Origin: a virus
Taxonomy: Duplodnaviria > Heunggongvirae > Uroviricota > Caudoviricetes
IMG/VR virus record: IMGVR_UViG_3300037088_000797
Location: 64,001-128,000 of that record
DNA: 64,000 nt
Reading direction: 5' to 3' (one strand)
Part shown: positions 21,214 through 32,910 of the stretch, in pieces
How the letters are laid out: each line of letters begins with the position of its first letter
Numbering within the stretch: position 1 is the stretch's first letter
The notes under the pieces: model-generated
The model's input: the letters and a program-made list of their open reading frames with translations, nothing else
Told to the model about the DNA's origin: nothing
The model's database searches: none
Program-made: the position numbers and the translations under genes

Positions 21214-22596
21214 TTAAGATACCGCTAATGTTTTAGCAACTGCTGCTTTATAAAAGTCAGCACGTTTTTTTGTAACCGTTGCCAAGTTATACTCAATATT
21301 GAAATCTTCATATAGCTGTTCGCCAAGTTGTTTACGTAGATCAGCATCTAATATGAGTCTCTTGAGATATTTTTGCCAATATTTTCTGGCATTTTTTTCT
21401 GTCGGAATAAGAACACAATTCTCCATGTGTTTTCCGTGTACATTATATGGTGGCATATCTGAACAAACAATTGGAAGTTTTCTTGTCCAGCATTCTACCT
21501 GTTTCAAATTCGATTTCATCCTGTTGAATGGATTATCAGCAAGCGGAGCAATAACTATATCGGTTTCATCCAATACTTTAGCGTATGCATTTGCTTTTTC
21601 AGTCCAACGTCTACCATAATTAAATTCGTTTTCATATTTGACGTTTCTTTCATAATTAGTAAGCCATTGAAGATAATCAGGATTGCTAATCATATGATGT
21701 CTATCTGTTAAAATATTTTCATATATAAGATAAACACTCTCCATTGATTTAATGTCTCTTTGTTTCTGGTCAAATACTTTTCCTCTGTATTTTTCTCTTA
21801 TTTCTGGTGGCAATTTAGGTATCTGATCTACATCACCCCTTGATCTGTTAATTGCTTTAACTGTCTGTGGTGTCCATAGACCTTTCTTTTGAAGCAAATC
21901 ACCAAACTCCTGATTAAAAGTAATATCAGTTGTGCTACCTTCAGTATCCCAACCAGCAAGAATTACTTTAAATTTATCATGTAATTGAGGGTCATTATAA
22001 AGTACGTTGAATACTCCATCAAGTTGTTCTACGTCACCCATGTGAGAAGACCCAGCCATATATGTGATTCTTACAAGTCCGTCTGGGTCTGGTTTCCTGT
22101 TATCCTGAAATTGTTTCATCATTGCAGGGTCAATTGAGTTGTAAAACACTCCGACATTATCCTTGCCAGTTACTTTACGAATTTCACTTGCAAATAAATC
22201 CGTTGTAGTTGTAACGTAGTCTGCAATCTTAAGGTTCTCCAGAATTGGAATATGCATTTTCTTTTCAAGATTCAAAGAATAGAACGGATGTTTTCTATGT
22301 AACTGCCAGAAGTCATCAATATCTACCATTAATATCACACCTGATTTTCTTAATTCAGTAGCCAGTTTTAACATTTCTTTAGTTTCACCTAAAAATTGAC
22401 GGTGATAATGGATAATATGAAAAGTTTTTAAATAGTCAACATACTTTGGGTCATTAAAGTCTATTTGTGGATTTATTTCAACATAAAATTCGTCTGAATG
22501 ATTTTTATCGAGTTCCATTGCTGGTGTTAATGTTCTGAAGTAGTTTACCCCTGCTGAGTCTAAGTTGTAGAATAAAATTCTAATCTTTCCGTCCAT
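21214..22596 (-). CDS. GT-B fold glycosyltransferase (GT4-like)
   Basis: RILFY.LDSAGVNYFR..TP; VDIDDFW; IADYVTTTT..FA; DIVIAPL..N.FN..KSNLK..E; G.NC.L. Start moved to MDGKIR (22596) because a terminator and late motif lie at 22635-22713. Confidence 0.75.
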   Translation of the reverse strand: MDGKIRILFYNLDSAGVNYFRTLTPAMELDKNHSDEFYVEINPQIDFNDPKYVDYLKTFHIIHYHRQFLGETKEMLKLATELRKSGVILMVDIDDFWQLHRKHPFYSLNLEKKMHIPILENLKIADYVTTTTDLFASEIRKVTGKDNVGVFYNSIDPAMMKQFQDNRKPDPDGLVRITYMAGSSHMGDVEQLDGVFNVLYNDPQLHDKFKVILAGWDTEGSTTDITFNQEFGDLLQKKGLWTPQTVKAINRSRGDVDQIPKLPPEIREKYRGKVFDQKQRDIKSMESVYLIYENILTDRHHMISNPDYLQWLTNYERNVKYENEFNYGRRWTEKANAYAKVLDETDIVIAPLADNPFNRMKSNLKQVECWTRKLPIVCSDMPPYNVHGKHMENCVLIPTEKNARKYWQKYLKRLILDADLRKQLGEQLYEDFNIEYNLATVTKKRADFYKAAVAKTLAVS

Positions 22597-22684
22597 ATTG
22601 TGTTTATAAATTATTATAAAATTATGTAATTTATTATAAATAGTCAAATGTAATAGAAAAGCATCAAACATGCCAGAGATTTTT

Positions 22685-22713
22685 AAAAAAAATGCCAACA
22701 AAATGTTGGCATT
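22685..22713 (-). terminator. intrinsic terminator
   Basis: 10-bp stem aatgccaaca/tgttggcatt followed by U8 on the minus strand. Confidence 0.7.
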
Positions 22714-24677: not shown

Positions 24678-24686
24678 TATAAATAC
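24678..24686 (-). promoter_or_regulatory. putative late promoter motif GTATTTATA
   Basis: 19 nt upstream of ATG 24659. Confidence 0.55.
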
Positions 24687-24692
24687 AGTACT

Positions 24693-25886
24693 TTAAATTT
24701 TTTGAAATGGTATTGTTTTTCTACCTGCCATTTTATAAGCATAGTATCTATGATATCCATCCTTAAGTAAATTATTCTTATCTAAAACAACTGGTGGTAA
24801 TTCACTTCCTGTTTTTAATTTCTTGATCATTGTTTCCACTCTTAATTTATCTAAAGGTATTTTACCACTATTATGAACACTAATTATTTCGTTGGGATTA
24901 TTGGTGTCTACCAATATAAGTTCACCATTTATCTTAATGTTATTTATATCAATATTTTGTATTGAATTTTGAATTTCTTCATTAATGTTTTGTTTTATTT
25001 CTTTGTCGATAAAATCCCAATTATTCAATGGAATCCAACCGTATTTTGTATTAATTTCCAGTTCATCTACTGGTATTTCTCTGGTTGTTACCCATTCATA
25101 TGAATCATTTTTCTTATATTTGGGTGACAATTGAAAATCATCTGTCTTTTTTGTTCTAAGTACAATACCTCTGGCTGACCCACCTTTCATATCAGCATAA
25201 TATTTTGCGACATTAGGTTTACCAGTAAATGAAATATATGGTTCATTATTATTTGCTGCATTGATCTTCATACTACCAGTACGTTGTATGTAATACCCAG
25301 CACCATCATATGTGCCATGATAAACATAATTATCTTCAGCAATAAAGTTTTGAATTTCTTCAGCAACTATATTGGTGACTTCATCCAATGTCAACTCACC
25401 CTTATTTGCAATATAAATATTGAATTTAATACCTTCTGGTAATGAATTTCTTATGCCTTCGTATGTGGTAATATCAGTATCCCTGTCATCATAAACGTTA
25501 ATCTCTCTTAGGTCTGGTAATTTAGTTGCATAATCAAGAATTTTTTGACCCTTATTTCTTGCACCACGTTGCATATCAAGTTTATCAACTTTAATATGGT
25601 TAACATCCAGTACTGCTTGTACTAAGGGACGTAATTTTTCTTGTCGTGAGGTTAATACAATAGTATATGTGGCAGGTGTTGAAACATCTTTATTTAAAAT
25701 GCTTAATACCTTTGGAAATGGTTTAATGTCGAAAACATCTAAATCCAAACTTTCGGGTCTACCCCACCAGCCTTGATATTTAAATGGCACACCCTTCTTG
25801 TATGACCAGAAACGTTGTCCTGTTTCTTTCTCAGGAGTATTAATAAGTGTTGCATCAAAATCAAATGCGCATAATCTTGTTATCAT
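24693..25886 (-). CDS. three-domain protein: HAD phosphatase (Swiss-Army-Knife RNA-repair type) + ADP-ribosyltransferase-like + ParB/Srx
   Basis: CAFDFDATL..TP...GWWGRPESL...VLTSR...INVYDDR (HAD); YVYHGT...ISFT..PNVAKYYA...GIVL...EWV (ART fold); LPPVVLDKNNLLKDGYHRYYAY (ParB/Srx). Confidence 0.7.
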   Translation of the reverse strand: MITRLCAFDFDATLINTPEKETGQRFWSYKKGVPFKYQGWWGRPESLDLDVFDIKPFPKVLSILNKDVSTPATYTIVLTSRQEKLRPLVQAVLDVNHIKVDKLDMQRGARNKGQKILDYATKLPDLREINVYDDRDTDITTYEGIRNSLPEGIKFNIYIANKGELTLDEVTNIVAEEIQNFIAEDNYVYHGTYDGAGYYIQRTGSMKINAANNNEPYISFTGKPNVAKYYADMKGGSARGIVLRTKKTDDFQLSPKYKKNDSYEWVTTREIPVDELEINTKYGWIPLNNWDFIDKEIKQNINEEIQNSIQNIDINNIKINGELILVDTNNPNEIISVHNSGKIPLDKLRVETMIKKLKTGSELPPVVLDKNNLLKDGYHRYYAYKMAGRKTIPFQKI

Positions 25887-25909
25887 TATTCGTCTATTTT
25901 GTTTTTCTT

Positions 25910-26419
25910 CTAACTTTTTGTAAAATTATCATAATACATTACTTCATCTTCTTTTATCATTGTAACCCAACCATCTTTTTTATCAACTTTATGATGAATG
26001 TACTTAACTAAAACATCATGTCCCACAAGATGTGCTTTTTTTGGTGTATCGTCACCATCACCAGTAAAATGCGCTCTTCCGTATTCAAAATGTTGTTCAA
26101 GAAAACGATATATTTCAAGTGGAGTAATCCATATATATCTATATCCTGTGATAAACACCCAATATTTTGCTTTAGTCACTGATAATGCGGATAATTTACC
26201 GTTCATTTCAACCTCAATCACCAAATTACCAGTATGTTTTGATTTGTAATCATTTTTAACTTCAACACCAGCATTTATTTCTGGTATAAAAATATCCCAA
26301 TCACTATTTGCTTTACCTATATCATCAATATATGACTTAGGATACTTGTGCTGTAAAATTTTCAATATTTCTTCTTCTCCAATATTACCAGCTTTTTTTG
26401 ATTCTTTATATTCGCTCAT
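25910..26419 (-). CDS. PD-(D/E)XK restriction-endonuclease-like protein
   Basis: GNIGEEEI...DWDIFI...GVEVKND...TGNLVIE. Confidence 0.65.
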   Translation of the reverse strand: MSEYKESKKAGNIGEEEILKILQHKYPKSYIDDIGKANSDWDIFIPEINAGVEVKNDYKSKHTGNLVIEVEMNGKLSALSVTKAKYWVFITGYRYIWITPLEIYRFLEQHFEYGRAHFTGDGDDTPKKAHLVGHDVLVKYIHHKVDKKDGWVTMIKEDEVMYYDNFTKS

Positions 26420-26426
26420 ATTTCAG

Positions 26427-26810
26427 TTAATTATATTCTACTTCAGTTACTTTTCCTGTTAATGATAATGGTCTTCTAATTTTTTCCCAATTTTTCAAAT
26501 TATTTGACATCATTGGCTTACCACCATTTGCTCTATTTACTGCAAGTGTTACATGTGCTTTTGGATTAAGTGTTTTAAAGCCAGATACTCCAACTGCAAT
26601 CACTTTATCATCCATTGCAATGTCTTCAACTGCCAGTCTTACTGGTAATCCAAGATATTTTTGATAATCTGGGTCGATTTCACCTGTATTAATAGTCATG
26701 TGATGCGCAATAATCTCCCAGCCTTCAGGTATTACGTTTTTAAATCTGTTAATTAATCTTTTTCTTGATTGTTCATCAAGTACAACAGCACTATATGAAA
26801 TGTTGTCCAT
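26427..26810 (-). CDS. 2H phosphoesterase, fungal tRNA-ligase CPDase-like (2',3'-cyclic phosphodiesterase)
   Basis: YSAVVLD...AHHMTI and AHVTLAV (two HxT motifs), ending GGKP..SN.L. Confidence 0.75.
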   Translation of the reverse strand: MDNISYSAVVLDEQSRKRLINRFKNVIPEGWEIIAHHMTINTGEIDPDYQKYLGLPVRLAVEDIAMDDKVIAVGVSGFKTLNPKAHVTLAVNRANGGKPMMSNNLKNWEKIRRPLSLTGKVTEVEYN

Positions 26811-26812
26811 GT

Positions 26813-29800
26813 TTATTCGTTTAATAGTTCTCTGTCAGTTAATGCCCAGAGTAATTCTTTTTTAAGATGTTCATCGTGTGTAAGGTCTTCATAATTATTC
26901 TGAAAAAATTCAAGAACACTTGCAGTTGAAGGGTCTTTATAACCATCTTGATTCCATATATCGTATTTTTCAACAAAGAATGGTATTCCTACTTCTTGTC
27001 CGTTTATATTCCAGATATCTTTTTTTTCAGGTTCTAATGTATCATATGAAAATTCTTTTAACAAACCATCATCATTAAGATTTAATATCTCACCATCTTT
27101 ACCTCTGCGACCTTTCCACGTATAAACCAATTCATCACCCTTCAATATTCTTTCTTTTTCAAATGGTTTAATGTACTTTTTACCTTCACCTTTTTTAACG
27201 TATGCAATTGTAATGTGTGCGTGGTAGTCAGGAAACTTAGTGGTATTTGGCAGTTCTCTCATAATACCATTAACCTTTGCAAGTAAATCTGAATTAACGT
27301 CAAATTTAACCACATCAAAATCGGGGTTTTCAAACACTGAAATACCAGATATTTTAACTTCAATTGGTTTCAACGGCATCTTTGATTTGTATAATTCAAA
27401 TACCTGTTCTGGTGTAACTTCATCATGAAATCCATATAATATTGTAAGATGTGGTTCTTTTTCAACACCATAGTCATCGCCCTTTATGTAAAGATCGTCC
27501 AAATCAACAACTGATGTGATCTTGCTCCAAATAGGTACTTCGAGAAATAACATAAGACAACCATACTCAATTCTTTCGGATGTTTCTTCTTTAATTTCTT
27601 TTGCATTTGCAAATCCAACAGTATTTCTTGCATTTTGTAATGCATCATATTTTTCTATTGTCGTTAATCTTACGTGTGAACCATTAATTGGATGATTGTA
27701 ATCCACCCTGCCATTATCAATAAATTCTACAAGTTGTTCTTCAGTCATATTTGTTGTCCAAATATCGCCTCTAAATTTATTATCCAAGGGACGCATTTCA
27801 ATTAAATATGTATTTGTTTCTTTATCAAAAACAATATTATTCAATACAACCATCATCATACCGCTTGGACTACCAAAATATAATTTTCGATTACTATATT
27901 TTCTCCAACCTAAACCTTCAGCGTGTTCTTCTTTAATCATCGGCTTTTCTTGCTTTGCCAAAGATAGTAAATCTTCTTTATTATTCATAGCATTATTTGA
28001 ATAAACCTTTAATAACAATGATTTTTGCATATCACCAATTGCTTTGCCCTGTAAACCAAGTTGCATTAAGTCATTGCCATTTATTGCTAATTCATTGACA
28101 CTCTTTGGATATTTGCCTTGCAGTAGTTCTTGTGCTGCAGTTTTAATAACATTAGGTAATATCTGGCTCTGTAATGATGTAGGAGATATTACGTACATGT
28201 TATGAGCAACTGAACGTGCTTCAACTAAATTAGTTGCTTCTCTGCTTTCAAATGCTATTTGAAGTGCCTTAATTTCTCTATAAGCATTTTCATCACCCTT
28301 TAAATTAGTTTTATAAAACTCTGCTGGGTCGTTAACAAGATTTTTACTTAATAAATAAACAAATTCGCCTATTGTTCTTACTTTATCGAAAGGTTCTTTT
28401 GTGTTTCTGAAGTCATAATATAATCCTTTGCCGAATATTTCTTTAAGTAAACCAGTTTCGTCAAGTAATATTGCACCTGTCAAAATATTGCCCTTTTTGA
28501 CAATTTTATCAAATTCTGTCAAAATTCTTTCGGGAGCAATTTCTTTAACTCTTTCAGCATTTTCCTGAATCATTTTCATTGTTTCTGGTTCAATAGTAAA
28601 ACCGAAACGACTTGCAAACTGTACAGCACGCAACATTCTAAGTGGGTCATCACTGAATGCCTGTGGATTAACAACCTTGATGACCTTATTCTTTAAGTCT
28701 TCCTGACCACCGAAAGGGTCAACTATATTACCATCAATATCTTTTGCAATTGCATTAATCGTAAAGTCCCTACGTTCCAAATCCTTTTCTATTGGCAATG
28801 CATGATCAGACTTAACATCAAATCCCTGATGACCACCTTCACCTGTTGGTGTTTCAGTACGTGGGATTGCAATATCAATATCTTCAGTTGCTCCTTTTGG
28901 TTTGAATTTAAGCACACCGAATGATTTACCAACAGCATTCACAGCACCATACTTACCAAGAATCTGTTCGAGTTGTTCAAATGGTATGCCTGTAATAAGA
29001 ATATCCAAGTCTTTGGATTCTTTGCCAAGAATTTCATCCCTGACAGCACCGCCAACTGAATATATTTTACCACCTGCTTCTTCAACATCTTCTCTGAATG
29101 GAAGATAGTTTAATCCCATTATTTGCCCCTCATATATCATTTTGCGCATTCTTTTGTTTGAGTATAAAAAATTATCCAAATCTTCTTTATCGGTAGGTAA
29201 TTGAAAATTCTGATGTTTACTATGTTCTTCATCACCAATATCGGTATAAATATATGATTCTCCCCCTAATGAACTTGAATAAGCATCAAGCAATACTTCT
29301 TTCAGTCTTTCTTCAGTTGGTGCATGAATATCTAATATATTTCCAATCTCTCCCTTATTAAATATTATTCTTGTATAACCATCATTATATGCCCTGTTGT
29401 ATATTTCATTTTGACTTTTTATGTCTGGATATAATCGCACTAAATAAGCCAAATGTACATCAGATTCAATAAATTTATTGTCAGGTGTTATCCAACCAGT
29501 ATGATCATAATTAGGAACTCTGATATTCCCTTCTGTTAATACCTCATTTATAGATTCATTTGCTGGTTCATGTTTTTGTTTACTCTTTTCTGGTTTGAAA
29601 GTTTTTACAAATGTATCATAAATTTTCTCAGCAATAGCACGATTTGCTCCATTTGGTATGTTTTTTCTGAACATCATTTCAATTTTGTTCGCAATCTCGT
29701 GAGCGTCATCATATTCATAACCATAATGTCTTATAATAAAACTTTCTGTTCTTTCATGTAATAGTATTGCTTCAAAGTCTGCTGGTTTGATCATAAACAC

Positions 29801-32800
29801 ATCATCAATCCAATATTCATTTTCTCCAATATGACTTGCATATTTCTGTTCGATTTTTGGAAGATCAGCATCAACCCAATGGTTACCACCATCGACCCAT
29901 TCAATAAATCCACTATCACGAACCTGATCACCATTAACGGCAAACACACTATATGTGTGATCTCCATCCTGATAATTTCTTATAAATTTCTTATCAAGAT
30001 GATGTGTAGTAAGGTCTTGCTGAATATCTTTTTCAAATTCAGGAAAATTTTCTTCATTTAAGTCCCAGAAATCATATGCAACTTCTTCATCAAGATCATT
30101 AAAGTCATCTGGTGATTTATCAGGCATTATTGGCACTTTGCTACCATATTTATTACGAATGTGTTGTTCTATATCGCTTGGTTTATAATCTAATAATTTT
30201 CCGATCTCACGTGCTTCTTCTGGAGTTTTATCTTTAAGATAACCTTCATTGTTCTTTGCAAAATCATATAATAAATATGCTTTAACCTTATCAGTATATA
30301 TAATTGCCATCATTGTTAGACGTGAAGTCATTCTTGTGGGAATTACACCAATTTTTCTTTTTTCAAGTTTTTGAGCAATTTCTTTATTAATTTCAAGAAA
30401 AGCAACGCCTCTTTTTCCATTTAAAATAGACTTAATTGCAGCAATATCGCTACGCATTTCTTTTGCATTAACTTCTTCGTTAACTTCTTCTTTTAATGGC
30501 TTAATGTCCACAGCATTAATGTCACCCCAATTACATTGAGCACTTGTGTTACCCAAGCCACCTAATCTACATTTCTTTTTAATTTCAACAGTACTGCTAC
30601 CTTCCATAGAAGATAATTTTCTTTCTTCATTCAATTCTTCTGATGATATATCAACAGCATTGATTGTTGCCACTTCTTTATTAAAAAAGGCAACTATTTT
30701 ATGATAACCATCAATTAAAATCTTATCAGAAGTACTAATCACAAAATAATCATTTAAATGCTTTTCAATATTCTCTTCATAGTATTTTATTGTTTCTAAT
30801 TGTTCTTCTTTCGTATTATCAATACTATCTTCAATTTCGCCATTATTATAAAACAAATAAATGTCCTTAACGCTTAATTTTTTTAATTCAAAATATGTGT
30901 TATTATATTCATCCGTTGTAATAAAATTCCATAACATTTCATGTTTATCGGGCATTTCAGGATAAACCTCAGATAGTTTAATTTTATTTACATTTTGTAC
31001 TTCTTCAGACATCAAATATTCATCTTTAGTAGCATCGTCAACATGATTATATTCTAAATCTTCTTCAATATTTGTATTTGCGTTTATATCGTTCTGAATT
31101 GAAGGAGAATTATCAATATTATTATGTGCAGGAAAATTATCTTGACCCATTGCATTATCGGTTGAAAATTTTGCGCTACCATCTTCAGGAAGATAAATAA
31201 TATCTTGTGCCATCATTGTTGGTTCATGTGCTTTATAACCACCAACATCAAAAAATTTCAACACCCCGTTTTGATATCCCAAGTTACCTGCATTACCATA
31301 GTCATCTGACTTAATACCATATTTACGTAATTCTTCTTGTATGTTAATTAAATCAATTAAATAGTCATATGTTGATTCTCTGTCTTCAGCAGAAATATTT
31401 AATTCTGGTTTATCACTTATTAAGTGTTTTGCAACTTCACCTACTTCTGCAGATGATTTTTTACGCATCATTAACAAGATATCAATATAATTCAATCCTG
31501 CAGGTTCAATTGTGTCAATTGTTTTCATGTATATGAAAAATTCTGCAGTAGGTTTGTCCTTAACGTTTTCCTGAAGAATTGCAAAGAAAGCGAGTTGTTT
31601 TACAGTATCAATTATTTTATAAAATGAGAATATTTTAGCAATATACTTTGGCTGTTCATTTATTAATTTACCAGCAGCATCTGCTTCGCTCTTATCTGCA
31701 GTTATTTTCAATATTACATTATCGTTAATTGTGAATGCATGACCATTTGAACCACCATCCATGTATACTGGTTCTGCCCCAAGATTTATTTTTTTTGCAA
31801 AAGCACTTGCCAATTCAGTTGCATAGTTTTTATCTTCTAATGTAAACGGTTTAACTGTTTGTCTTGAAGGATTTGTTGCTTCATTAATTTCATATTCTTC
31901 TTTAAGAAGCGGGTCTCTGTCATAATATTTATTTTCAATAAGCCATTCTTGAAGCGTCAATAAATTATTATAAAATTTCTTTTTCTGTGGAACACGTTTC
32001 AATACTTCTTTAAGATTGTTTACCACATTATGAAATTCATCAAGAACATACGGTGCGCTCGGTAATTTCTTTGGATATTTATCTCTGGCAAGTACAAATG
32101 AAATAAAACCTTCATTAATGACACCACCACCATCACCAACACCATAAGGCATTTGCGCCCACATACCTCTACGAGTATCGATTGCATCTTGTGGTGGCAT
32201 ATCTGAAAGTATATCATCATTACCATCAGCACAATTAAACATTTCATACATCTGATATTGTTGCTTTCTTTTTGGACTATAATGAGTATTATAAACTTCA
32301 TCAGTTAATCCATAATCACTAAGAACAATTGTTGGTTGACCATCACGAAAAACCTCACCATAGGTACTTGCTCTACCCAAATCACCTGCAGATATCGAAT
32401 AATTTGACATTATGTCTTGTAAATCAGTGACAAATTCATTATCGTTTAATAATTTTTCAATATCTACATCCAAGCCAAATATATTTCCACCACCTTTAAT
32501 TCTATTTTCATGATTTCTAAGAAAATAAAACAATTCATTTAAACTTGGAATACCTGTTAATTGTTTAATTCTTGCTTCGCTTACTTTTTTTGCTTTCTCC
32601 GCAACAATCCAACTACCATTATTATCGGATTCTAAAACCTTTGTAACAATATAATGTGTGTCTGGATATCTACCAATATTTATTTCTGCGTCATTCTGAG
32701 CAACACCCTTGGCGTTCTTAGCTAATTTGAATACCTTTGTGCCATCAATATCGTAAACAATTCTACCACTACCAGCACCAAGTTTCAGAAGGTTTTGATC

Positions 32801-32878
32801 GGCATATATAATTTTCTGTCTAAAGGACTGTATTTCTTCAAATTGGTCTAAGAAATTTAAGAATTCATCGTAAGTCAT
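26813..32878 (-). CDS. 2021-aa polyvalent protein: kinase, kinase, ParB/Srx, zincin-like, CCA-adding nucleotidyltransferase, Acb1-like 2H phosphoesterase and several unknown modules
   Basis: Kinase 1 LGAGSGRIVY..KVFKLAK..DL..DYG; kinase 2 GGSNGHAF..LKIT..D.GNAGN..FFDVG; ParB LIDGYHK; LLHERTE; CCA GGAVRDEILG..KDLDI, DLERRDFTINA, DDPLRMLRA; 2H EPHLTILYG / YHAHITIAY. Confidence 0.85.
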   Translation of the reverse strand: MTYDEFLNFLDQFEEIQSFRQKIIYADQNLLKLGAGSGRIVYDIDGTKVFKLAKNAKGVAQNDAEINIGRYPDTHYIVTKVLESDNNGSWIVAEKAKKVSEARIKQLTGIPSLNELFYFLRNHENRIKGGGNIFGLDVDIEKLLNDNEFVTDLQDIMSNYSISAGDLGRASTYGEVFRDGQPTIVLSDYGLTDEVYNTHYSPKRKQQYQMYEMFNCADGNDDILSDMPPQDAIDTRRGMWAQMPYGVGDGGGVINEGFISFVLARDKYPKKLPSAPYVLDEFHNVVNNLKEVLKRVPQKKKFYNNLLTLQEWLIENKYYDRDPLLKEEYEINEATNPSRQTVKPFTLEDKNYATELASAFAKKINLGAEPVYMDGGSNGHAFTINDNVILKITADKSEADAAGKLINEQPKYIAKIFSFYKIIDTVKQLAFFAILQENVKDKPTAEFFIYMKTIDTIEPAGLNYIDILLMMRKKSSAEVGEVAKHLISDKPELNISAEDRESTYDYLIDLINIQEELRKYGIKSDDYGNAGNLGYQNGVLKFFDVGGYKAHEPTMMAQDIIYLPEDGSAKFSTDNAMGQDNFPAHNNIDNSPSIQNDINANTNIEEDLEYNHVDDATKDEYLMSEEVQNVNKIKLSEVYPEMPDKHEMLWNFITTDEYNNTYFELKKLSVKDIYLFYNNGEIEDSIDNTKEEQLETIKYYEENIEKHLNDYFVISTSDKILIDGYHKIVAFFNKEVATINAVDISSEELNEERKLSSMEGSSTVEIKKKCRLGGLGNTSAQCNWGDINAVDIKPLKEEVNEEVNAKEMRSDIAAIKSILNGKRGVAFLEINKEIAQKLEKRKIGVIPTRMTSRLTMMAIIYTDKVKAYLLYDFAKNNEGYLKDKTPEEAREIGKLLDYKPSDIEQHIRNKYGSKVPIMPDKSPDDFNDLDEEVAYDFWDLNEENFPEFEKDIQQDLTTHHLDKKFIRNYQDGDHTYSVFAVNGDQVRDSGFIEWVDGGNHWVDADLPKIEQKYASHIGENEYWIDDVFMIKPADFEAILLHERTESFIIRHYGYEYDDAHEIANKIEMMFRKNIPNGANRAIAEKIYDTFVKTFKPEKSKQKHEPANESINEVLTEGNIRVPNYDHTGWITPDNKFIESDVHLAYLVRLYPDIKSQNEIYNRAYNDGYTRIIFNKGEIGNILDIHAPTEERLKEVLLDAYSSSLGGESYIYTDIGDEEHSKHQNFQLPTDKEDLDNFLYSNKRMRKMIYEGQIMGLNYLPFREDVEEAGGKIYSVGGAVRDEILGKESKDLDILITGIPFEQLEQILGKYGAVNAVGKSFGVLKFKPKGATEDIDIAIPRTETPTGEGGHQGFDVKSDHALPIEKDLERRDFTINAIAKDIDGNIVDPFGGQEDLKNKVIKVVNPQAFSDDPLRMLRAVQFASRFGFTIEPETMKMIQENAERVKEIAPERILTEFDKIVKKGNILTGAILLDETGLLKEIFGKGLYYDFRNTKEPFDKVRTIGEFVYLLSKNLVNDPAEFYKTNLKGDENAYREIKALQIAFESREATNLVEARSVAHNMYVISPTSLQSQILPNVIKTAAQELLQGKYPKSVNELAINGNDLMQLGLQGKAIGDMQKSLLLKVYSNNAMNNKEDLLSLAKQEKPMIKEEHAEGLGWRKYSNRKLYFGSPSGMMMVVLNNIVFDKETNTYLIEMRPLDNKFRGDIWTTNMTEEQLVEFIDNGRVDYNHPINGSHVRLTTIEKYDALQNARNTVGFANAKEIKEETSERIEYGCLMLFLEVPIWSKITSVVDLDDLYIKGDDYGVEKEPHLTILYGFHDEVTPEQVFELYKSKMPLKPIEVKISGISVFENPDFDVVKFDVNSDLLAKVNGIMRELPNTTKFPDYHAHITIAYVKKGEGKKYIKPFEKERILKGDELVYTWKGRRGKDGEILNLNDDGLLKEFSYDTLEPEKKDIWNINGQEVGIPFFVEKYDIWNQDGYKDPSTASVLEFFQNNYEDLTHDEHLKKELLWALTDRELLNE

Positions 32879-32901: not shown

Positions 32902-32910
32902 TATAAATAC
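32902..32910 (-). promoter_or_regulatory. putative late promoter motif GTATTTATA upstream of the polyprotein
   Basis: 24 nt upstream of ATG 32878, just downstream of a terminator. Confidence 0.6.

Follow-up and report, generated by a model that had tools for sequence, protein, structure and literature searches.

A linked 2H phosphoesterase, HAD phosphatase and CCA-adding enzyme in giant phages form a candidate kit for healing and rebuilding tRNA 3′ ends

Three predicted enzyme domains encoded close together on the minus strand of a phage genome fragment, a small 2H phosphoesterase, a HAD phosphatase and a class II CCA-adding nucleotidyltransferase, are best explained as a kit that would heal tRNA 3′ ends and rebuild their CCA tails. 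The trio would resemble the HD-containing Cca enzyme of Escherichia coli in outcome and use other folds, and its healing pair would probably be shared with RNA ligases; we put the probability of this reading at roughly 0.6. The DNA analyzed, hereafter the window, is a 64,000-nucleotide stretch (positions 64,001 to 128,000) of the 178.5-kb linear virus record IMGVR_UViG_3300037088_000797 (G000), which is estimated to be 54% complete. Complete relatives measure 320–366 kb; their major capsid protein is T4-like and their prohead protease is of the S77 type. The clade consists of uncultured giant phages: no cultured member was found, and a search for HAD relatives in cultured phages found none. 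The host is probably a Bacteroidota bacterium, because the best matches of one gene, the phage thioredoxin, are mostly from Bacteroidota.

The CCA-adding domain (27929..29131, minus strand) has no gene of its own and forms an internal module (residues 1250–1650) of a 2021-residue polyvalent polyprotein (26813..32878, minus strand), which was delineated from its open reading frame (ORF) and profile searches. It matches Pfam PolyA_pol (E = 4.7e-23) and PolyA_pol_RNAbd, and its best PDB matches are CCA-adding enzymes (E = 5e-32). The GGAVRD, DxD, RTE, RRD and DDxxR motifs are present, and the class II motifs (GGxVRD with DxD, RRD and (E/D)DxxR) are kept in nearly all of the 37 CCA sequences compared. 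The flexible loop after the basic/acidic motif, whose deletion in CC-adding enzymes served as the class marker, is full-length, with 32 residues from RTE to RRD and no deletion relative to CCA enzymes in the PDB. The best NCBIfam model, PRK13299, is matched over its full length below cut-off; all equivalog scores are below cut-off, and the sequence is also compatible with an A-adding enzyme. An HD domain was sought in the phage enzyme without an HDIG match, and the alignment with the E. coli-type Cca model PRK10885 ends at model position 207 of 409. An upstream G[RK][RK]F is the signature of the bacterial poly(A) polymerase PcnB; this identity was rejected, as the phage sequence reads GKSF and PcnB models score below CCA models. 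At the level of sequence, the family assignment is well supported. At a number of related loci (L020, L021, L027, L029, L030, L032, L034, L035, L045, L047, L052, L053 and L060) a second CCA subtype, marked by NKPNKD, occupies the position of the first, mostly has a start codon to itself and departs from the tree of the flanking gene.

The small 2H protein (127 residues; 26427..26810, minus strand) starts 2 nucleotides past the polyprotein stop. It is a minimal phosphoesterase of the CNPase/Trl1-CPD type, predicted to act as an RNA 2′,3′-cyclic phosphodiesterase, with a Pfam tRNA_lig_CPD score of 24.2 bits (cut-off 23) and the catalytic motifs H37-x-T39 and H86-x-T88; both HxT motifs are whole in 48 of 50 homologs. 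Its structure model has a predicted local distance difference test score (pLDDT) of 93 and matches CNPase with a Z of 13.1 and a root-mean-square deviation of 2.2 over 124 residues. The possibility that it is an Acb1 anti-CBASS nuclease was discarded, given the absence of a Pfam Acb1 match and a Z of 7.3 against Acb1. The HAD domain (25371..25886, minus strand) makes up the N-terminal 172 residues of a 397-residue ORF (24693..25886, minus strand) and is a putative DxDxT phosphatase of the HAD_SAK_1 type, predicted to remove RNA 2′/3′-phosphates. Its match to HAD_SAK_1 (PF10307) reaches E = 3.8e-5 and 24 bits, against a cut-off of 25.6, and close homologs pass the gathering score. The motifs comprise DxDxT, T-S-R, K112 and D134, and residues D9, D11, K112 and D134 are invariant in 51 sequences. 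The model (pLDDT 95.5) shows the Rossmannoid HAD fold, with Pnkp phosphatases among the structure matches; the top matches are generic and include protein phosphatases. PDB sequence searches with 2H and HAD returned no useful match. An earlier reading of the window from its letters alone, the sequence-only reading, had placed all three domains here, and each was found with intact catalytic motifs; its call of a class II CCA enzyme that retains the RTE-containing loop was borne out, with all motifs and the full-length loop present. It had left out the rest of the interval, namely the polyprotein context, an Acb1-like 2H domain and a 169-residue nuclease-like ORF.

Related loci were gathered through the flanking ParB-like gene, to avoid selecting on the trio itself, which yielded 29 distinct loci spanning the region. 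Of these, 28 have 2H, 27 have HAD (with one broken copy) and 26 have CCA, whereas the range for most other modules is 1–17 loci; three N-terminal polyprotein modules and the second kinase are likewise common (22–29 loci). In 13 loci, CCA and 2H lie in one ORF. Fusions were also seen when the HAD profile was searched against 1.84 billion representatives (50% clusters) and the top 150 matches were taken: 60 proteins are longer than 225 residues, 14 with a CCA and 17 with a 2H domain, and these long proteins show at least five domain orders (CCA-2H-HAD, 2H-CCA-HAD, CCA-HAD, 2H-HAD and HAD-2H). Two proteins, P0285 (698 residues) and P0330 (711 residues), consist of 2H, CCA and HAD and nothing else; the former is encoded in a different gene neighborhood, with an RNA ligase gene 7 kb away. 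A ligase fusion was sought among the long HAD proteins checked and none was seen; the physical tie of the grouping is to the CCA enzyme. Loss also runs in parallel, as the only two of 50 2H homologs without the second catalytic histidine come from loci in which HAD is absent or broken (the broken HAD of L023 may partly reflect a sequencing error). The synteny in 26 of 29 loci, the repeated fusions in varied orders, this joint decay of 2H and HAD, and the replacement by Pnkp or a CCA-HD enzyme described below support the conclusion, also reached by the sequence-only reading, that the three domains behave as one functional unit.

Two side observations concern further HAD proteins. In P0307, P0333, P0347, P0354, P0371 and P0329, all of ∼600 residues, the same HAD is fused behind ∼430 N-terminal residues, for which scans of four of the six proteins gave no Pfam match. 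In a distant huge phage of 595 kb (LR756511, L277:5710–8612), a divergent CCA-type gene lies ∼700 bp from a HAD gene.

The window holds no RNA ligase, as had been noted from its sequence, and the only PF09414 match in G000 lies outside it. That match is an Rnl2-type ligase (G000 31097–31960, ∼32 kb outside the window) whose KxHG motif is intact, and Thg1 is encoded ∼1 kb from it. Also outside the window are an AAA_33 kinase beside an HD gene, two HAD_SAK_2 genes and NADAR. The idea that the phage itself lacks a ligase was therefore dropped: G000 encodes Rnl2 together with Thg1 and an AAA_33 kinase, and every one of nine near-complete relatives has Rnl1, Rnl2 or RtcB. Because a CCA-type enzyme is also found in all nine, the proposed comparison of ligase and CCA co-occurrence across phages cannot separate the two partners. 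As a whole, the sequence-only interpretation stands for the linked unit, fails for the ligase-free genome and had overlooked the plainer job of tRNA maturation; the rescue from host nucleases that it proposed is a candidate role. As an observation in its own right, a separate RNA-repair region in G000 (C1 16171–40726; L003, L004) contains the HD, AAA_33 kinase, NADAR, Thg1 and Rnl2 genes and additionally a DNA ligase, the two HAD_SAK_2 genes and an HD_4 gene.

The distribution of healing enzymes in the near-complete genomes is more informative. Six of the nine have the trio and no Pnkp-HAD, and the two without the 2H/HAD pair (G003 and G005) are the sole ones with a T4-type Pnkp. In G014, CCA and HAD are gone from the locus, 2H is degenerate and a separate CCA-HD enzyme with an HDIG match is encoded. 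G002 carries a CCA-2H-HAD fusion and RtcB, with no Rnl1, Rnl2 or AAA_33 kinase detected; RtcB does not seal 2′-phosphate ends (PMC4201822). Taken together, these genomes point to 2H and HAD as the 3′-healing function of the clade, with a physical tie to CCA addition and probable use by ligases as well.

In the proposed mechanism, the small 2H protein would open a 2′,3′-cyclic phosphate at the tRNA end. CNPase and Trl1-CPD convert cyclic phosphates to 2′-phosphates (PMC4201822), and to judge from its fold the phage enzyme would most likely do the same. The HAD phosphatase would then take off the remaining phosphate, and the HD-less CCA enzyme would add or complete C74-C75-A76 with no need for a ligase, so that the three domains jointly would do the work of the HD domain and polymerase of E. 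coli-type Cca. The same CCA enzyme could finish phage tRNAs, whose genes mostly stop at C74, and the healing pair may also ready ends for Rnl1 or Rnl2. Candidate sources of damage are spontaneous transesterification (PMC6961547), tail cleavage by Cas13a, and Cas12a3; the RuvC-type cleavage of the latter should yield a hydroxyl end that would need the CCA enzyme only. Cuts within the acceptor stem would not be mendable by the trio.

Ordinary tRNA maturation accounts for part of this set. Seven of the nine near-complete relatives encode 36–65 tRNA genes, and 310 of 327 tRNA genes examined in relatives encode C74, 145 end in CAA and 30 encode CCA, which is thus missing from 91%. The C74/CAA ending was considered as a phage-specific trick and rejected, as two Bacteroidota genomes (L201–L260) share the pattern (C74 in 68 of 69 tRNA genes, CCA in 13). 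With CCA left out of most phage tRNA genes, a CCA enzyme has everyday work in maturation, and the phage enzyme is explicable partly as added maturation capacity. This leaves the attached phosphoesterases unexplained. A tRNA with a CUA anticodon (amber suppressor-like; Pyl according to ARAGORN) was also observed in seven of eight genomes, and a tRNA-Ile with a UAU anticodon in several relatives (both in regions L090–L109).

The arrangement of the locus further suggests late expression. The sense-strand motif GTATTTAT (32903..32910, minus strand) upstream of the polyprotein is a candidate late promoter for the whole unit; it precedes the polyprotein in 34 of 35 relatives, and an overlapping TATTTATA stands ahead of protease and scaffold-like genes in the relative G001. 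Within G000, the late motif is enriched in the structural part (24 of 115 versus 6 of 91 ORFs, p = 0.005) and is absent ahead of the 2H, nuclease-like and HAD genes. A motif before the polyprotein and none before 2H and HAD suggests that a single late transcript covers the trio. The motif was likewise absent ahead of Rnl2, Thg1, the AAA_33 kinase and the genes checked in the RNA-repair region. It is the reverse complement of the T4 late consensus; the consensus itself, TATAAATA, was tried on the sense strand and discarded, being not enriched there. Written as (G)TATTTAT(A), the putative late motif has 30 sense-strand sites in the window, for example at 24678, 32902, 33646 and 34836.

The polyprotein also has the appearance of a substrate for a prohead protease. 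Motifs of the form [ILVM]xE are 3.5 times denser at module junctions than within modules, and IYE^G and IKE^E sites flank the CCA domain. T4 gp21 cuts after glutamates of this [ILVM]xE type, and a gp21-type S77 prohead protease is encoded in all four complete relatives (G000 being a 54% fragment, the protease gene is known from these). Behind the HAD domain lies a conserved tail (25335..25388, minus strand), an LxE site followed by an IIxEEI-type helix, to which 29 of 38 HAD tails conform; a segment resembling it begins a small head-region gene of G001, and the tail is a candidate cleavage site and packaging signal. On the strength of the late unit and the prohead-protease-type junctions, packaging, release by cleavage and injection are probable for the CCA and HAD modules at least. 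Injected modules would act at the start of infection, ahead of ligase synthesis.

Several findings weigh against a tRNA-healing kit and have to be set beside the alternatives. Fusion carries less weight than usual, because the locus fuses many unrelated modules; the L077 locus retains 2H and HAD but has no CCA, and in three of four distant huge phages no CCA lies within 8 kb of HAD. When co-evolution of CCA, 2H and HAD was tested with distance correlation and trees, the locus proved to be a mosaic in which two CCA subtypes swap, and the gene trees show no co-evolution beyond adjacency. Only a few replacements were seen, and those in G003 and G005 could go back to a single event. As for delivery, IIxEEI is not enriched genome-wide (8 matches versus 6.3 expected, not significant), and no packaging tag is evident on the stand-alone 2H. 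In Bacteroidota the CCA enzyme comes with an HD domain, so the likely host already has such an enzyme of its own. Lastly, there are the ligases of all nine near-complete relatives, and G013 has Rnl1, Rnl2 and a kinase, with no Pnkp-HAD or HAD_SAK_2 among the 3′-phosphatases searched, and 2H and HAD may therefore serve ligation there. These last points fit an explanation in two separate jobs, with 2H and HAD as the 3′-healing arm of ATP-dependent ligases, a split substitute for the T4 Pnkp phosphatase, and with a CCA enzyme that only matures CCA-less phage tRNAs. It is consistent with the replacement of the pair by Pnkp, with the 2H and HAD distances, which correlate best with each other (0.66), with the joint degeneration of the two, and with the 91% of tRNA genes without CCA; the same division of labor is predicted in PMC7824862. 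However, the fusions join CCA and none joins a ligase, the triple fusion of G002 occurs with RtcB as the only ligase, the trio stands under the late motif and Rnl2, Thg1 and the kinase do not, and in G014 a CCA-HD enzyme accompanies the loss of HAD and of a catalytic histidine of 2H. We therefore regard two unconnected jobs as doubtful.

A further alternative treats the domains as independent virion-delivered effectors of a polyvalent locus, CCA adjacency being a by-product of cargo fusion. In that case 2H and HAD would degrade nucleotide signals (2′,3′-cNMPs, cyclic oligonucleotides or ADPr>p) or dephosphorylate proteins for the neighboring kinases. The many unrelated modules at the locus, the additional fusions of HAD to ART, SLT and ParB-like domains and the generic fold matches of HAD would suit this scheme, and signal degradation has been proposed for the 2H domains of polyvalent proteins (PMC5512222). 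It is nevertheless unlikely, as the trio persists amid the turnover of most other cargo, three-domain-only proteins occur outside this locus, the 2H fold is CNPase-like rather than Acb1-like, and the replacements are RNA end-healing enzymes. Least probable is a route dedicated to the phage's own tRNAs, in which a metal-independent cut after C74 of the C-A-A trailer would leave C74>p, to be healed and extended with C75-A76. The encoded C74 and frequent CAA ends would agree with it, but the C74-only pattern of Bacteroidota makes a phage-specific route unnecessary, no such nuclease was identified, and tRNA genes with these ends also occur in G003 and G005, which have no 2H/HAD pair; we consider it very improbable.

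The remaining features of the locus surround the trio. The polyprotein contains two kinase-like modules, a ParB-like and an HExxE-containing module, the CCA domain, an Acb1-like 2H domain and several modules of unknown function, and its module content differs among relatives. The Acb1-like (Acb1/gp57B-like) 2H domain (27059..27556, minus strand; residues ∼1775–1940) matches Pfam Acb1 below cut-off (E = 0.0015); it is found in 8 of the 29 loci and is variable cargo outside the conserved trio, with anti-CBASS activity as a candidate role suggested by its sequence. A PHROG 'RNA ligase' label on residues 1806–1898 was rejected, as this segment is a 2H domain and no ligase. Between 2H and HAD lies an optional ORF with a PD-(D/E)xK-like motif (169 residues; 25910..26419, minus strand; 11 of 29 loci), which belongs to phrog_13596, of unknown function, and is called nuclease-like from the motif alone. 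Two extra modules are fused behind HAD in G000 (24693..25334, minus strand), a YHGT-containing ART-like and then a ParB-like module, both optional cargo and both named from motifs only; a Pfam search of them gave no significant match, and the middle module occurs in 4 of 29 loci. Elsewhere in the window, homologs of a glycosyltransferase-like neighbor gene (21214–22701) in L035, L068, L074 and L082 are split by an in-frame insert of ∼350 residues, possibly an intein.

A candidate setting for the kit is antiviral defense that clips tRNA tails. The universal CCA tail is cut by Cas12a3, homologs of which are numerous in Bacteroidota (PMC12851939, PMC13594972), and cleavage by a Cas13a frees CCA, with cyclic-phosphate ends left behind (bioRxiv 10.64898/2026.08.25.746378). 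We tentatively suggest that the trio could be a virion-injected counter-defense in Bacteroidota, undoing tail clipping by Cas13-type HEPN nucleases and Cas12a3. It is similarly possible, and no firmer, that Cas13-type cyclic-phosphate ends would need all three enzymes and Cas12a3 hydroxyl ends the CCA enzyme alone. According to the Cas12a3 paper, virus resistance would take 'yet unknown' means, and a literature search found no paper on phage counter-defense against tRNA tail clipping. The trio is a concrete three-enzyme candidate for such resistance, and P0285, a natural single-chain version, makes the question directly testable. If true, the trio would be the first phage answer to an attack that cannot be evaded with phage-encoded tRNAs. 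It would also give a first function to this HAD_SAK_1 subfamily and to the 127-residue minimal CNPase-like 2H. Should its work be confined to maturing phage tRNAs and supplying ligases, it would amount to a modest variation in the architecture of the RNA repair predicted for jumbo phages.

Among known systems, the closest in outcome is E. coli-type Cca (a class II nucleotidyltransferase with an HD domain; NCBIfam PRK10885), which removes 2′,3′-cyclic phosphates without a ligase and then re-adds CCA (PMC6961547). The end result proposed for the trio is the same and the RTE loop is similar, whereas the phage enzyme is HD-less and the phosphoesterase steps are assigned to 2H and HAD, in separate genes or cleavable-looking fusions. 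Eukaryotic recycling by ANKZF1/Vms1, ELAC1 and TRNT1, which heals tRNAs with N73>p ends and restores their CCA (PMC10275265), follows the same substrate logic; ELAC1 is of the RNase Z family, in contrast to the 2H and HAD of the phage, and the phage module has no ANKZF1-like nuclease. T4 Pnkp/Rnl1 likewise heals 3′ ends with a DxDxT phosphatase, and Pnkp appears exactly in the relatives without the 2H/HAD pair; however, Pnkp carries out the two healing steps with a single domain and hands anticodon breaks on to a ligase, whereas the phage uses two domains linked to CCA. Polyvalent proteins, described by Iyer et al. in 2017 as long multi-enzyme chains near late genes that are thought to be packaged, include kinase and 2H domains like the phage polyprotein (PMC5512222); the phage junctions resemble T4 gp21-type [ILVM]xE sites, and the available portion of that paper describes no CCA or HAD_SAK_1 module. 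No paper on a linked or fused CCA, 2H and HAD unit was found in the literature search, with a mention in Burroughs & Aravind 2016, the source of the Swiss-army-knife families, being possible. Iyer et al. (2021; PMC7824862) list 2H phosphoesterases, Swiss-army-knife HADs, CCA enzymes and Thg1 in jumbo phages, and G000 has all these parts of the predicted RNA repair toolkit. There, 2H and HAD are tied to ATP-grasp ligases, the Swiss-army-knife HAD is mostly stand-alone, and the accessible text describes no linked or fused CCA, 2H and HAD unit. The parts of the trio were thus already listed for jumbo phages, and what appears to be new is their linkage or fusion into one unit with the CCA enzyme.

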